This document shows positions 10,363 to 17,440 of a stretch of DNA of 64,000 nt, one piece after another. Each line of letters begins with the position of its first letter. Positions within the stretch are counted from its first letter, which is position 1. Both the position numbers and the translations under genes were made by a program. Source of the stretch: Ostreococcus lucimarinus (taxonomy: Eukaryota); assembly GCA_000092065.1 (NCBI GenBank), contig CP000594.1. One strand, 5' to 3'. The notes beneath the pieces are model-generated. The model searched no databases. It was not told where the DNA came from and saw nothing but the letters and a program-made list of their open reading frames with translations.

Positions 10363-12097
10363 ATGATGGTGATGATGAAGACTGAAGACTGAAGACTGAC
10401 GCTCGCGAACGAACGCGCGAACGCAGCAACCGCAAATCGTGCTGCTCAGGGAAGGCACGGACACGTCGCAAGGACGCGGACAGTGCGTGTCGAACATAAA
10501 CGCGTGCTGTGCGGTGGCGGATACGGTGCGAACGACGCTTGGACCGCGAGGATTAGATAAACTCGTGCGAGACGCGCGAGGAAACACGACGATTTCCAAC
10601 GACGGCGCGACGATTATGAAACTGTTGGAGATTGTGCATCCGGCGGCGAAAACGCTCGTGGACATCGCGAGAGCGCAGGATAGCGAAGTGGGGGACGGGA
10701 CGACGACGGTGGTGATACTGGCGGGGGAGCTGTTGAAGGAGGCGAAGACGTTCATCGAGGACGGCGTGCACCCGATGAATGTCATCAAGTCGTTTCGAGA
10801 GGCGTGCGATTTGGCGACGGCGCGCGTGCGCGAATTGGCGACGTCCATCGAAGGGAACAGCGCGGAGGAGAAGGATGAACTTTTGAAGAAATGCGCGATG
10901 ACGACGCTGAGCTCCAAACTTGTAGGAGGGGAGAAGGACTTCTTTGCCGACATGTGCGTCAAGGCGGTGCGCTCGCTCGATCAAGACTTGTTGGACCCGA
11001 AGATGATTGGCGTGAAAAAGGTCATGGGCGGAGGGATGACGGATTCGTTCTTGGTGGATGGCGTGGCGTTTAAGAAGACGTTCGCCTACGCCGGCTTCGA
11101 GCAAATGACGAAGAGCTTCAAAAAGCCGAAGATTTTGGCGCTCAACATGGAGCTCGAACTGAAGAGCGAAAAAGACAACGCCGAGGTGCGCCTGAGCGAT
11201 CCGACCAAGTATCAAGAAATCGTTGACGCTGAATGGAACATCATTTACGAGAAGCTCGACAAATGCGTGGCGTCGGGAGCGAACATCATTCTGAGTAGAC
11301 TCGCGATCGGGGACTTGGCGACGCAATATTTCGCCGACCGCGGATTGTTTTGCGCCGGTCGCGTAGACGCGCAGGATTTGGAACGCGTGACGCGCGCCAC
11401 CGGCGCGCCGGTGCAGACCACGGTGAACAACATCACGGACGCCCAGCTCGGATCGTGCGAGTTGTTCGAAGAGATTCAAGTCGGTAACGAACGGTACAAC
11501 ATTTTTAGAGGTTGTCCGCAGGCGAAGACATGCACGCTCATCTTGCGCGGCGGCGCCGAGCAATTCATCGAGGAGGCGGCGCGCTCGCTCAACGACGCCA
11601 TCGAAATTGTTCGCCGCGCGGTGAAGAACGCGGCGATCGTCCCTGGTGGCGGTGCGATCGATATGGAGTTGAGCAAGTACTTGCGCAACCACGCGCGCAC
11701 GGTGGCGGGCAAATCTCAGCTCTTCATCAACGCCTTTGCCAAAGCTTTAGAAATCATCCCGCGACAGCTCTGCGACAATTCCGGGCACGACGCGACCGAC
11801 GTGTTGAACAAGCTCAGACAAAAGCACGCGGGCGATGACGGGGCGAATTTCGGCGTCGATGTCAACGGAGGTGGCATCTGCGACACGCACGAACGCTTCA
11901 TCTGGGAACCGAGCCTGGTGAAAATCAACGCCCTGAACGCCGCCACCGAAGCGACGTGCTTGATTCTCTCCGTGGACGAAACCGTGAGAAACCCGCGAAG
12001 CGAAGGCGCGGATGAAGGCATGGGTGGCGGCGGTGGTCGGGGCATGCCGATGGGAGGTAGAGGAGGTGGTCGCGGCCGGGGTCGCGGCCGACGATAG
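10363..12097 (+). CDS. CCT7: T-complex protein 1 subunit eta (CCT7)
   Basis: join(10363..10368,10427..12097). A 6-nt first coding exon ATGATG with donor |GTGATG and a 58-nt intron (carrying (GAAGACT)3) to acceptor acgcag gives [18 protein letters not shown]. This aligns with metazoan CCT-eta MMPTPVILLKEGTD. Strong body matches ([23 protein letters not shown]) and a C-terminal GRGRGRGRR tail. The track ORF start at 10439 is a GTG. Confidence 0.85.
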
Positions 12098-12145: not shown

Positions 12146-14503
12146 CTAGTCGCCGTCGTCGCTACTGAGCTCGCCGCTAAGAATGGAATCGTCGACGTAC
12201 AGATCCGAGGTATCCAACGCGTTGATGTATCTCGCGAGCATCGCCGCGGACTCCTCAGCCTCTTCTAATTCTTCTAAACGCACTTTCGCGTCCTCGTCTT
12301 GAAGATGCGCGTATTTAGGCGCCCAGGGCGAACCGGGTTCGTCGTCAATGGGCGACCCTGGACTCGTCTCGCTCGCCGGTTCGGGCGTCGGCGCGGCAAC
12401 GGATGGCGACTGTGCGGACATCAGAGCGTCTCTCGACAATCGCGACGCTTCGTCCGGCAAGTGCTCGTCCACATGCACGTTTCTCGCGGCGAGAAGGACG
12501 TTGTGTATGAGCATCACCGCCACCGGTTCGAAAATGCCCGACGACGTCAGCGTCGGCGTGCGAACGCCCGTCGTCAAATCCATGATGTCCCTGGGCGTGA
12601 GCACGGCGAATTTCTTCGGCGCAAATTGAGCGGCGGCGTAAGATGCGAGTCCAATCGACGTCGCGGAGGCTAAAGATCCTAGCAACGAAGGTGCGCCTCG
12701 CGACAAGTGCGCGTCGGCGCTTTCGTCGAGTACGTCTTCGTCCGCGGCGCCGCAGCGGCGCGAAAACGGCGCGCCGTCGAGCAACATTCCGAACACTTCT
12801 TCCGCCGTCTCTTCGACATCTCCCGGACTCGATGGTCGCATCGTCGACGCCCATTCTGACGAAGCGAACGCGCACGTCACGGCGTGTCGGGAAACTTCGT
12901 CCGCGTGGCGCGGATACGCCTTGGCTAATCGCGACCGCAGCGTCGCCATGCGAGGATGTCGGCACACGCCGTCCAGAACAATCGTCGACGCCGGTGCGAG
13001 TCGGCCGCGTTGCGCGCGACCGACCAGACGCAGCGTCGCGACTTCAAATGCGCTCAACGACGGGTGCGATGCGACGCGAAGAGCAAACATCGCGTGACCG
13101 GTTGAACGAAATTTCGGAAGCGCGTCGAGCTCGCTCGGATCCGTCGCCGGACACTTTCCGGTGTCCGCGCCGAGGGTCAGCGCGGAGTACAATATATCGA
13201 TCCAATTCGCCCCGCGTCCGACGCCGGTGACTTTTTCGACGACGCGCGACACGCTCCCGCCTCTCGTCTGCAGTCCGCACATCGGATCCCTGAGCAACTT
13301 CCACGCCTCGGCGTGCGGATCCAAGTACGCCGAGCTTCGACACAGCGTCACTCCCAACCGCATGCCGAGTCGAACGCGCTCGCGCGGAGGAAGCGTGGCG
13401 AGGAGTAAGAACGGGCGTATCAAACCGGCGCGGTACGCCTTGTCTCGGTAATCGCTCTCGCGGTCGAGAACGTCAAATATGAACCCCGCGCGCTCGTCCG
13501 CGGCTTCGCGTTTCGCCAGCCGCAAATCCCACCCGCGCGCGATCTCCTCCGCCGACGCCGTCGCCGTCGCCGCGTCGTCCCCGCGGCTCAGCGCGCGCTT
13601 AAACGCCTTCGCCAACGCCCCGATCGTGGGCACGGACACGTGTCCACCGATGTTTATTCTGCGCGTCGTCGTCTCCGCCGCGGCGCACCTCGCGCACGAT
13701 CCCCCACCCGGCCGCGAGCGCTTGCGCATCACCTCCGCGTCCTCGCCGCACCGCTCGCACGCCGCCGTCCCCCCCCCACACACCATGCACTCGTACGCGT
13801 CGCTCCCGCGCGTCCCACGCCTGACGTGCGAACTCTTTTCCCCGCACCACGAGCACCACGCGACGCGTCTCGTCGCCGCCGCGAACGCCTCGCTCGTCGT
13901 CCACGTCTCCACCCATCCCGCGCACTTCGCGCACCTCCCGTCCCCGATCTTCGCGAATCCCTCCGCGCATCGTTCGCACTTGTGCGTCGCCCTCGCGCAC
14001 CGCGCGCAGTGACTCAGATACGTCCCTCTTCTCCCCGTCGCTCGCGTCACTCGATGTCGCGTCTCTTTGCCGCACCACGAGCACCGCCCGCTCGGCGACA
14101 TCCTTCGCGCGACGCTCTCCACCCCGTCCCCGCCCTCCGCGTCCGACCACTTGAATCCATCATTATTTTTCGTCACCGCGCACGCGCACGCCAGGCACGC
14201 GTCGTCGTCCCATCCGTCGCCGCTTCTCGCCATCGCTCGACACGTCGCGAACCGCGCGCACGCCCGCGTCCGTCCCGCGCACGCCCCGCACGCGCGCGGC
14301 GCTCGCGCGGCGCTCGACCGCGTCACCGCCGCGTGCGACGTCTCGTGGAAGCACCACGAGCACCGCGCGATGAGCGCGCGCGTCGCGGCGGGCGTCGGCG
14401 CGTCGCGCGACGTCGAGGCGCCGGACGCGCTCGGCGTCGCGCTTCGCGTCGAGCGCGCGCGCGAGCTCGGCGCGCGGTCGAGCGCGTCGCGCGCGTCGCG
14501 CAT
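12146..14503 (-). CDS. hypothetical protein with three N-terminal CSWC(G)…H…CxxC…CxxC cysteine-rich modules and a C-terminal alpha-helical domain
   Basis: 785 aa, ATG at 14501-14503. Three repeated modules: RCSWCFHETSHAAV…CGAC…CARF, RCSWCGKETRHRVTR…CARCARATHKCERC…CAKCAGW and WCSWCGEKSSHVRRG…CMVCGGGTAACERC. No family recognised. Confidence 0.5.
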   Translation of the reverse strand: MRDARDALDRAPSSRARSTRSATPSASGASTSRDAPTPAATRALIARCSWCFHETSHAAVTRSSAARAPRACGACAGRTRACARFATCRAMARSGDGWDDDACLACACAVTKNNDGFKWSDAEGGDGVESVARRMSPSGRCSWCGKETRHRVTRATGRRGTYLSHCARCARATHKCERCAEGFAKIGDGRCAKCAGWVETWTTSEAFAAATRRVAWCSWCGEKSSHVRRGTRGSDAYECMVCGGGTAACERCGEDAEVMRKRSRPGGGSCARCAAAETTTRRINIGGHVSVPTIGALAKAFKRALSRGDDAATATASAEEIARGWDLRLAKREAADERAGFIFDVLDRESDYRDKAYRAGLIRPFLLLATLPPRERVRLGMRLGVTLCRSSAYLDPHAEAWKLLRDPMCGLQTRGGSVSRVVEKVTGVGRGANWIDILYSALTLGADTGKCPATDPSELDALPKFRSTGHAMFALRVASHPSLSAFEVATLRLVGRAQRGRLAPASTIVLDGVCRHPRMATLRSRLAKAYPRHADEVSRHAVTCAFASSEWASTMRPSSPGDVEETAEEVFGMLLDGAPFSRRCGAADEDVLDESADAHLSRGAPSLLGSLASATSIGLASYAAAQFAPKKFAVLTPRDIMDLTTGVRTPTLTSSGIFEPVAVMLIHNVLLAARNVHVDEHLPDEASRLSRDALMSAQSPSVAAPTPEPASETSPGSPIDDEPGSPWAPKYAHLQDEDAKVRLEELEEAEESAAMLARYINALDTSDLYVDDSILSGELSSDDGD

Positions 14504-14641: not shown

Positions 14642-15478
14642 TCAGCGTCGGGCGCGACGCACGCGATCGCGCATTCTGAACGCGCGGTCGTCCGGCGACG
14701 CGCGCTCGAAGGCGACGTCGCGAGGCGCGTCGACGACGGCGCGGCGGACGCGCTCGGGACGCTCGGGAAGCGGCGGCGCGGGTCTGCGCGCGGCGTCGAC
14801 GTCTAAACCGGCGAGCAAACGCGTGAGCTCTCGCGTGCTCACGGGACGCTCGCCCGGGGCGCGCGTCATGCACACGGCGTCGACGCCGTCGGCGTAGTAA
14901 CCGCGACGCGAGCCGCGCGTCTCGAAGCCGCACTTTTCGTACATGGCCAACGCGGCGACGTTGGTCGCGCGCACCTCCAACGCGGCCGCGTTCGTCGGCT
15001 GCAGACCTAACATGGCTTTTAACACGCGCGCGCCCAGGCCTCGGCGTCGCAGCGATCGCCTGGTCGCGATTTGCGTCACCTGCGTCTCGCCCGCCACGCA
15101 GACGCAAAATCCAATCGCGCCGACGACGCGCGCGTCCGATTCGCTCGCCTCGCCCGCCGCCGGCACCGCCACCAGCGCTCTGTGCGTCTTCGACGTCTCC
15201 GCGTCGACGCTTCGCTCGAGATCGTCTCGCACCGTCGCCTCGCTCCAATCGACGTCGGCGTCCGCGCACAGCGCCGTCGCCGCGTCGAAGTCGCGTCGAC
15301 GCGCCGGTCGAATCGCCCACGCCGCGACGCCTTCGCACAGCGCGTCCGTCGCGCTCGACGACGCGTCGCGAGAAGACGCGTTTCGCGACGCGTCACGTCC
15401 CGTCCGCGTCCGCGTCCGCGTCGCGCCGCGAATCGTCGCGAAACGCGGCGTCGTCGCGCCACATTCTCGAATCTTCAT
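14642..15478 (-). CDS. GNAT-family N-acetyltransferase (RimI/NAT-like)
   Basis: 278 aa from ATG at 15476-15478. Acetyl-CoA motif A (RRRGLGARVL) and the RimI-like motif LEVRATNVAALAMYEKCGFETRGSRRGYYADGVDAVCM. The upstream part of the 647-aa track ORF is low-complexity and rejected. Confidence 0.6.
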   Translation of the reverse strand: MKIRECGATTPRFATIRGATRTRTRTGRDASRNASSRDASSSATDALCEGVAAWAIRPARRRDFDAATALCADADVDWSEATVRDDLERSVDAETSKTHRALVAVPAAGEASESDARVVGAIGFCVCVAGETQVTQIATRRSLRRRGLGARVLKAMLGLQPTNAAALEVRATNVAALAMYEKCGFETRGSRRGYYADGVDAVCMTRAPGERPVSTRELTRLLAGLDVDAARRPAPPLPERPERVRRAVVDAPRDVAFERASPDDRAFRMRDRVRRARR

Positions 15479-15622
15479 TCGTCGCGCGCGCGCGCGCGCG
15501 CGCCGCGTCCGCGTCGCCGGCGCGCGTCCGCGCGCTCGAGCTTCGCAGGTCTCTGTACGCGCGTCCGCGGACGCGCACGAGCGCGCGCTCGTTCGCGGGC
15601 GACGCGATGATGACGACGCGCG

Positions 15623-15937
15623 ATGCGACGCCGGCGATTCGATTCGCGCCGCACAATGCCGCGCGACGACGACGACGACGCGCGACGACGCGCGGACGCG
15701 CGCGCGACGGTGTCCGGCGAGCGACGCGACGGCGCGCGTCGCCGCGCGCGCTCGAGGTCGAGCGAGGGACGACGACGACGGTCGAGGTCGGATTCGCGAC
15801 GACGACGACGACGACGCGACGACGCGAGCGACGACGCGCGCGACGACGACGCGCGCGAGCGACGACGCGCGCGACGGTCTCGGTCTCGGTCTCGGTCGCG
15901 ATCGAGGGACGACGCGCGACGAAGGCGACGACGACGG

Positions 15938-15972
<35 letters not shown>

Positions 15973-17440
15973 GCGCGGGCGGACGCGACGCGCGAGTCGA
16001 GATCGCGAACGACGCGAGGGAAGGACGAGGCGGCGAAGGAGTCGAAGCGAAAGCGCGCGGAACGAACGAAGAGGACGAAGATCGAGAAGCCGGGATCGCG
16101 AGCGACGGCGAGGACGGTCGAGATCGAGGTCGAATTCGAAGACGCGGCGACGCGGCGGACGAGCGAGAGCGTCGCGATGGGACGAGGACGGCGACGAGGA
16201 CGGGGACGGGGAGACGAGGGTGGATTTTGACGACGCGCGAAGGGACGCGGGGAGAGGTGATGAGAAATCGACGCAGTTGAAGACGCAGATCGAGATGATG
16301 CGAGCGCTGAGCTCGACGACGAAGGATGGGGTGAAGCGAGCGATCGAAGAGGCGCGAGAAAAGGCGGCGACGTTGATGGGAGAGGCGGCGCCGGCGCGCG
16401 TCGCGGCGGCGAAGGGTGACGCGAGCGGTGAAAGTGCGAGTGGTGGTGGGGATGCGCGCGCGCCCGTTCGGACGATGGCCGTTAATGTCGCGAAGGCGGC
16501 GCCGAAAAGCGCGCGCGACGACGAAGACGCGGGCGTCGTCGGAGATGGCGCGAATAGTAAAAAGGCGACGTATTGCGTGGAGCACTACGACATGGACGTC
16601 AAGTACGAAGGTTTAATCATCGGTCCGGGAGGCGCTACGATTCGTAAGCTGCAGCAGGACATCGGGACGTCCATCGAGGTCGTACGTGGCGAAGGGAAAT
16701 TACAAATTAAAGGATCCAGAGAGAAAATTGAGTACGCGCGGAAGATGCTCGATGAATTCTTCGAGCAAAAAGGATCGAAGACTGTCAAGGTGAAGTGCAA
16801 GGCACGATCGGGTCTGATCATAGGTAACGCTGGACAAACGATCAAAGCCCTTAAGGAGCAAACTGGCTGTCGTATAGAAGTCATGCGAGACGTCGAAGAG
16901 TGCGTCATCACGGGCCCGGGCGATCGCGTCAAAGTGGCGCAAGCCATCGTGGAGAAAATGATTGCGGATTCCTGGGAAGAAGGTGCCGATGGCGATATTA
17001 CCATCGTCGAGGAAGTGATTCCGTGCGCGTACAAGGCTGGCGCTATCATCGGTCCAAGCGGTGGGACGATTCGGCACATTCGCGAAACGACTGGAGTGGC
17101 GATTGACATCGAGCGCGGCGCGGACGGTTGCAAAGCGAGCGATCAGTGCCGCATAATCGGCACGCCGGCGCAAGTTAAAAAAGCTGTCGAAATTGTTCAT
17201 CAACTCTTGAAGGAGATGAACCAAGCGCAGTTGCAAGCCGCTCCAGTGGTACCGCCAATGTATGCGTACGGATACGGAACGATGCCCAACGCATACGCCG
17301 CCGTTCCGGGAATCCCAGTCAATTCATCGCAGATGCAGCAGATAGATCCGCAGACTGCCGCGTATTACGCGCAATGGCAGGCGTACTATGCGGCTCAGCA
17401 AAATACTGTGATGCCTCCGCACCCACCAGCCGATGGGTGA
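15623..17440 (+). CDS. KH-domain RNA-binding protein (three type-I KH domains) with N-terminal Arg/Ser/Asp-rich (RS-like) region
   Basis: KH GXXG loops: IGPGGATIRKL, IIGNAGQTIKAL, IIGPSGGTIRHI. The C-terminus is Q/Y/A-rich. The N-terminal 200 aa is RSRSRS/RRRRDDDD low complexity encoded by (GAC)n/(CGA)n repeats. The true start may be downstream, e.g. ATG ~16296 (MMRALSS). Confidence 0.6.

Follow-up and report, generated by a model that had tools for sequence, protein, structure and literature searches.

A Tandem Array of Uncatalogued, Probably Zinc-Binding CSWC Modules Joined to an Orphan All-Alpha Domain in Ostreococcus lucimarinus

Introduction

Among protein domains, small modules that bind zinc are a familiar class, of which new families still turn up regularly. 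The classical zinc ribbons, such as the N-terminal ribbon of NrdR, the C-terminal ribbon of TFIIS/TFS, and the Pfam families Zn_ribbon_8 and DZR, are all-beta and have two CxxC knuckles around a beta-hairpin. LIM domains have eight ligands in four pairs, with the signature C-x2-C-x16-23-H-x2-C-x2-C-x2-C-x16-21-C-x2-(C/H/D), while FYVE fingers bind two zinc ions via eight cysteines. Here, a protein is described from a 64,000-nucleotide stretch of contig CP000594.1 of Ostreococcus lucimarinus (the window) that carries three copies of a cysteine-rich unit, called here the CSWC module. It is encoded by a complete single-exon open reading frame (ORF) in the ORF listing of the window (12146..14503, minus strand; 785 amino acids (aa) plus stop), in which the three modules are followed by a C-terminal helical domain. 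Very probably, the modules form a new family of domains with structural zinc.

Three CSWC modules in the window protein

The modules lie in tandem, all on the minus strand. Module 1 (aa 45–116; 14156..14371) reads CSWC..H..CGAC..T..C-x5-C..MAR..CLAC, module 2 (aa 138–204; 13892..14092) CSWC..H..CARC..T..CERC..FAK..CAKC..W, and module 3 (aa 214–282; 13658..13864) CSWC..H..CMVC..T..CERC..MRK..CARC. Every module opens with (R/W)CSWC(F/G)-x4-H, and 12–15 residues on come CxxC, C-x2-5-C, and CxxC. They were recognized by a hidden Markov model (HMM) made from 42 other modules, only two of them from the related alga Micromonas and none from Ostreococcus, with independent E-values of 2e-12, 1.8e-10, and 2.4e-10, respectively. 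With the window translated in all six frames, the same HMM matched nothing beyond these three, and when the N-terminal 300 aa were shuffled 1000 times with their composition kept, its top score was -2.3 bits. An earlier note on this DNA, made from the letters alone, had described three tandem cysteine-rich modules (CSWC...H, then paired CxxC), and these results confirm it. The note had also proposed conservation of the Cys/His positions across homologs as a check against low-complexity sequence; in a 16-protein alignment with identities down to 24%, no ligand cysteine varies in any of the three modules, and the conservation is strict in the orthologs and far beyond them.

The widened third knuckle of module 1 is common to the Micromonas-type and myxobacterial module 1, where it takes the form C-x4-C together with a terminal CxxH. 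In a best-match analysis of module index, module 2 matched another module 2 best in 68 of 90 comparisons and module 3 another module 3 in 64 of 90, while module 1 paired with another module 1 in 42 of 90, a plurality only, with 37 going to module 2. The triplication of the module is thus old, because the module index tends to stay position-specific across lineages, including the C-x4/5-C knuckle and the frequent terminal CxxH of module 1. In one Micromonas-type homolog (P0032, aa 119–219), the start of module 2 (GRCSWCLDNKRHF...) occurs twice, 36 residues apart; either part of the module was duplicated internally or the assembly is at fault.

Module anatomy and predicted fold

The module is approximately 65 residues long and has eight ligands in four CxxC-type knuckles (seven or eight Cys, none or one His), with the signature [WYR]-C-S-W-C-x5-H-x(~10, inserts up to ~50)-R-x2-[YF]-x-C-x2-C-x3-T-x2-C-x(2-5)-C-x3-[MF]-A-[RK]-x(7-15)-C-x2-[CH]-x-G-x-[IV]-x2-W. 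Column frequencies were taken from 276 non-redundant modules (<70% identity) drawn from 427 instances. Cysteine occupies columns 3, 6, 28, 31, 38, and 57 in 100% of them and columns 41/42 in 97% combined, while column 60 is Cys in 85% and His in 15%. Outside the ligands, the conserved columns are Ser4 (96%), Trp5 (89%), Tyr/Phe26 (84%), Thr35 (82%), His12 (80%), Arg23 (75%), Asp/Glu54 (70%), and Trp67 (57%), together with Met/Phe-Ala-Arg at columns 45–47. The window modules show the features by which the CSWC family is proposed to be defined, namely the eight ligand columns with Ser4, Trp5, His12, Thr35, and (M/F)-A-(R/K)45-47 in approximately 65 aa.

The AlphaFold2 (AF2) model of module 2, computed from an alignment of 22 modules, is all-beta without a helix, with a mean predicted local distance difference test (pLDDT) of 88.6, a predicted template-modelling score (pTM) of 0.73, and strands at residues 12–18, 23–28, 34–37, and 44–47. 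From these strand positions, the first half of the module appears to be laid out as knuckle, beta-hairpin, and knuckle, like a zinc ribbon. A set of eight ligands, two per knuckle, implies a pair of tetrahedral metal sites, which we infer to be paired sequentially (C3/C6/C28/C31 and C38/C41/C53/C56) and to hold zinc. Cys-to-His swaps are typical of zinc sites, and the Cys/His exchange at ligand 8 in 15% of the modules argues mildly for this metal.

Comparison with described zinc families

In structure, the module's first half, C3-x2-C6-x21-C28-x2-C31, matches classical zinc-ribbon proteins best, though weakly. The module differs from the classical ribbons in a putative second four-ligand site fused six residues behind the first, in a signature of its own (CSWC, His12, Thr35, the MAR motif, and the C-terminal Trp), and in its occurrence in tandem arrays of two to four within eukaryotic multidomain proteins. 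With LIM, the module shares a length of approximately 55–65 aa, the eight ligands in four pairs, probably two sequential zinc sites, a last ligand that is Cys or His, and the tandem adaptor arrays also known for LIM. However, six residues instead of two separate its sites, and its third ligand is Cys where LIM has His; the CSWC modules do not fit the LIM signature, and no LIM profile or structure matched. Although FYVE likewise has eight ligands, its WxxD, R(R/K)HHCR, and RVC motifs are absent from the 276-module column profile, the AF2 model has no helix, and Pfam FYVE matched neither the window modules nor 43 diverse modules. The family signatures of the RING, PHD, and ZZ cross-brace fingers are also absent, and the modules are not assigned to those families.

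Searches of domain libraries agree with this. Pfam (2025 copy) gave no match to the whole window protein even at E<=10; the single window modules drew sub-threshold, mutually inconsistent matches only (Zn_ribbon_8, Lar_restr_allev, and Zn_ribbon_GRF_2), the best score being 25.8 bits for Zn_ribbon_8 against a cutoff of 34.4, on module 3 only. At E<=0.01, each Pfam family matched at most one of the 43 diverse modules, and no zinc-ribbon family recurred. NCBIfam and PADLOC returned nothing for the window protein, for its bacterial homolog (see below), or for the neighbours of the latter. Module profiles run against PDB sequences gave marginal matches only, to L33, to ClpX knuckles, and to C2H2 arrays (E=0.0016 at best and mostly no stronger than 0.04), a usual outcome for Cys-rich profiles, while the whole protein and the C-terminal-domain profile found none there. 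In the literature, searches on the module, the locus accessions, DUF726 with zinc, and phospholipase D with zinc ribbon found nothing relevant, and a preprint on the Lipocone superfamily describes neither the CSWC module nor the C-terminal domain. Neither is present in Pfam or NCBIfam, and, within the libraries searched, the CSWC module represents a family, apparently of zinc-ribbon type, that has no curated entry. The suggestion of the earlier note that this is an undescribed metal-binding module outside the known zinc-finger families is therefore supported, since the libraries searched gave no clear family match. The scattered sub-threshold ribbon matches and the LIM-like ligand plan could alternatively mean that the modules are divergent members of a described family (LIM, the ZZ/RING/PHD/FYVE cross-brace fingers, DZR, or Zn_ribbon_8) missed through sequence drift; in view of the spacing, the missing signatures, and the inconsistency of the matches, we regard this as improbable.

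Distribution of the module

The module profile was scanned with HMMER against 1.84 billion representative proteins (clusters at 50% identity) and matched 441 proteins at E<=1e-3, of which 158 pass E<=1e-10 and 28 pass E<=1e-30; most have two to three modules and some up to four. Those with a named source come from green algae (Mamiellophyceae), the ichthyosporeans Chromosphaera perkinsii and Creolimax fragrantissima, the amoebozoan Balamuthia mandrillaris, and the rhizarians Cercozoa sp. M6MM and Nonionella stella (a foraminiferan), as well as from Artemidia motanka, Rhodelphis marinus, and two myxobacterial species known from metagenome-assembled genomes (MAGs). If this is confirmed, the known small zinc-binding domains would be joined by a widespread new family, with no fewer than 441 clusters (50% identity) from four or more eukaryotic supergroups, and hundreds of proteins of ecologically important picoalgae and protists that are now merely "hypothetical" would for the first time become accessible to structural and functional study.

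The C-terminal domain

Directly behind the last module, the window protein carries the all-alpha domain (RPF, HAE-W, and C-terminal LLAA-G) that is the proposed mark of its protein family. This orphan domain (aa 317–686; 12446..13555, minus strand) contains the motifs AGLIRPFLLLATLPPRER and LDPHAEAW. The AF2 model of aa 317–686 is all-alpha with a pLDDT of 78, which bears out, for this region, the reading in the earlier note of a helical, non-repetitive C-terminal part. Over the whole domain, the window protein aligns with Micromonas-type algae, Chromosphaera, Balamuthia, and other homologs. The invariant or near-invariant polar residues fall into two clusters, AG(L/M)IRPF...P..R and GD.HAE.W, which might form an active or binding site, and the domain is a candidate new fold.

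Most non-algal members have a strongly hydrophobic, Pro/Gly-punctuated segment of 35–55 aa just before the last conserved helix, of a type that is typical of a membrane hairpin. Its maximum Kyte-Doolittle hydropathy is 1.9–2.7 in the members outside Mamiellophyceae versus approximately 1.5 in the window protein. In the latter, a low-confidence Ala/Ser-rich stretch occupies the position of this segment, at aa ~584–654 (12542..12754, minus strand; model residues 268–338, pLDDT <50). Behind the domain comes an acidic, probably disordered tail (aa 687–785; 12149..12445, minus strand) that, in the alignment, is conserved in Ostreococcus-type sequences only. The Ostreococcus-type tail has the motif YINALDTSDLY, and the acidic lineage-specific tails of the Micromonas-type proteins P0018–P0030 end in a conserved DDGWPSADEDE or DDWLEDEI; these motifs at the tail ends may be short linear interaction motifs. 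Most non-algal members stop right behind the last helix, with ...EDYY.

Domain partners and proposed role

The C-terminal domain of the window protein also occurs in 60 of the 143 new matches, among the matches listed. In seven proteins, two modules stand N-terminal to the HKD domains of phospholipase D (PLD; PLDc/PLDc_2), a place likewise taken by PX-PH or C2 ahead of the catalytic HKD motifs of eukaryotic PLDs, and Pfam detected no PX, PH, or C2 in these seven. One module precedes a DUF726/TMCO4 hydrolase-like domain in four proteins, and there are single cases of the module with GRAM plus cNMP-binding, PH, DUF639, ELMO, and LRR. The majority of the module partners are lipid or membrane-traffic domains. 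The module itself has no sequence or fold similarity to PX-PH, C2, or FYVE, and lipid binding by it is hypothetical. It is mildly basic, with a mean net charge of +2.6 (74% of modules positive), and has conserved basic columns (23 and 47) and aromatic columns (2, 5, 26, and 67).

The best overall explanation, which we hold to be reasonably probable, is an uncatalogued family of binuclear, zinc-ribbon-derived modules that forms a tandem targeting or adaptor array ahead of an all-alpha domain. Each module would fold independently as an all-beta unit with two structural Zn2+ bound one after the other along the chain: a beta-hairpin would be held between knuckles 1 and 2, just as classical zinc ribbons do it, and knuckles 3 and 4 would form the second site directly behind the first. 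The triple array would then serve as a multivalent device that brings the C-terminal domain to a membrane surface or a membrane-associated partner (an acidic lipid or a membrane-bound protein), and in the PLDs of this family a tandem array would take the place held by PX-PH or C2 in other PLDs. If this were confirmed, there would be a testable idea for how PLDs that lack PX-PH or C2, and TMCO4-like hydrolases, are targeted. What makes the family notable is its breadth, its links to PLD and DUF726, and a C-terminal domain of orphan fold, and no surprising principle is involved.

A targeting or adaptor function of the modules is likely, while a target that is specifically membrane or lipid has somewhat less than an even chance. 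Several points weigh against the latter or against the scheme in general. The case for membrane targeting is made solely of domain co-occurrence and hydropathy; the LRR and ELMO partners suit a protein-protein adaptor equally well; in the window protein, as in Ostreococcus and its relatives generally, the hairpin has decayed into a stretch that is rich in Ala and Ser and only weakly hydrophobic; and the conserved His12 is given no role in the proposed two-site scheme. The basic charge and the conserved basic and aromatic columns are compatible with targeting and are not decisive. A more far-reaching version can be offered only tentatively and seems rather unlikely: the module would be an ancient membrane- or lipid-targeting double-zinc finger that replaces PX-PH/C2 in several protist PLDs, and directs DUF726/TMCO4 hydrolases and the hairpin-containing helical domain to the same compartment, and the whole would amount to a new family of membrane-associated proteins that diverse eukaryotes share and that has passed at least once into myxobacteria.

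Other functions fit the same data less well. The modules are basic, the best of the marginal PDB matches involve C2H2 arrays (E=0.0016), and the Balamuthia homolog was automatically named "TFIID subunit 1" in NCBI, all of which would suit nucleic acid-binding fingers in a transcription or RNA factor. However, the TFIID name has no Pfam support, no architecture includes a DNA- or RNA-binding partner, all recurrent partners are lipid- or membrane-associated, and most members have the hydrophobic hairpin, making such a factor very unlikely. Iron in place of zinc, as rubredoxin-like Fe(Cys)4 or Fe-S with a redox or sensing role, would use the same cysteine knuckles, but the His at the last ligand in 15% of the modules, the partners (PLD, PH, GRAM, ELMO, and DUF726), none of which is a redox domain, and the tandem arrays of two to four typical of adaptor zinc fingers leave it a marginally smaller chance still. 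That the modules are low-complexity Cys/Arg-rich sequence without a defined fold, an idea encouraged by a genome of ~60–65% GC with many spurious Arg-rich ORFs over the locus, is refuted by the Cys columns, invariant down to 24% identity, by E-values of about 1e-10 with an HMM from distant taxa against shuffles below 0 bits, and by the AF2 confidence (pLDDT 88.6), and retains a negligible probability.

Gene model and start of translation

Thirty-six homologs are colinear with the 785-aa ORF. The NCBI counterpart of the window protein is XP_001421374.1 (O. lucimarinus CCE9901; 678 aa), labelled only "predicted protein, partial", which clusters at 90% identity with the nearly identical P0001 (695 aa; MARSGDGW...). 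Both public models begin at or after Met91, that is, within module 1, and the discrepancy concerns window positions 14233–14503 (minus strand). The full module 1 is kept in P0002, P0003, the Micromonas-type homologs, and beyond. Because homologs conserve the complete module 1, the ATG at 14503 is a better start than Met91, and the public gene models of the locus should be extended upstream. The first 44 aa (14372..14503, minus strand) are an Arg/Ser/Thr/Ala-rich leader that is not conserved, being variable or absent in the homolog alignment. The window is eukaryotic DNA with a GC content of approximately 60–65%, and the remaining ORFs that overlap the locus on both strands are Arg-rich, lack homolog support, and are artefacts of this GC content.

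Myxobacterial homologs

A prokaryotic genome scan with a single query protein, P0238, located this near-consensus homolog (three modules of 77–84 bits each plus the C-terminal domain) at L002:8800-12000 and also on L003, L004, and L005. The contigs belong to marine Polyangiaceae/Sandaracinus-type MAGs and show a clearly bacterial context (TonB_C, VWA/YfbK_C, SpoU, and UbiA); Pfam gave nothing significant for the neighbours of the bacterial homolog. P0238 lies within an island of ~3.2 kb with a GC content of 57–61% versus 71–80% in the flanks, a difference that suggests that the gene was acquired horizontally, with a eukaryote as a possible donor. Another copy, at 56% identity, is present in a second myxobacterial MAG (L006). 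The ORF at L002:10001-11608 (plus strand) is broken at codon 413 by one in-frame TAA, a codon for Glu in the relative P0096, and the 123 codons that follow are still conserved up to the C-terminus of the family (...AEGIDIADYY). The 412-aa product recurs on roughly 90–100 contigs; the gene could have become a pseudogene recently, could be split in two, or could be translated by read-through.

Neighbouring genes

The genes around the locus were read from sequence alone. The ORF at 10439-12097 (plus strand) resembles a CCT/TCP-1 chaperonin subunit with an RGG-rich tail end, and the one at 14642-16585 (minus strand) is long and GC-biased, with a C-terminal part resembling a GNAT acetyltransferase. 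A KH-domain-like protein with an extremely Arg/Asp/Ser-rich N-terminus is encoded at 15623-17440 (plus strand). In a related alga, the NCBI model P0017 (449 aa) joins a fragment of the C-terminal domain (HMM match at aa 12–307) to a KH domain (PF00013). As the KH-like gene adjoins the family gene in the window, P0017 probably merges two adjacent genes into one chimeric model.
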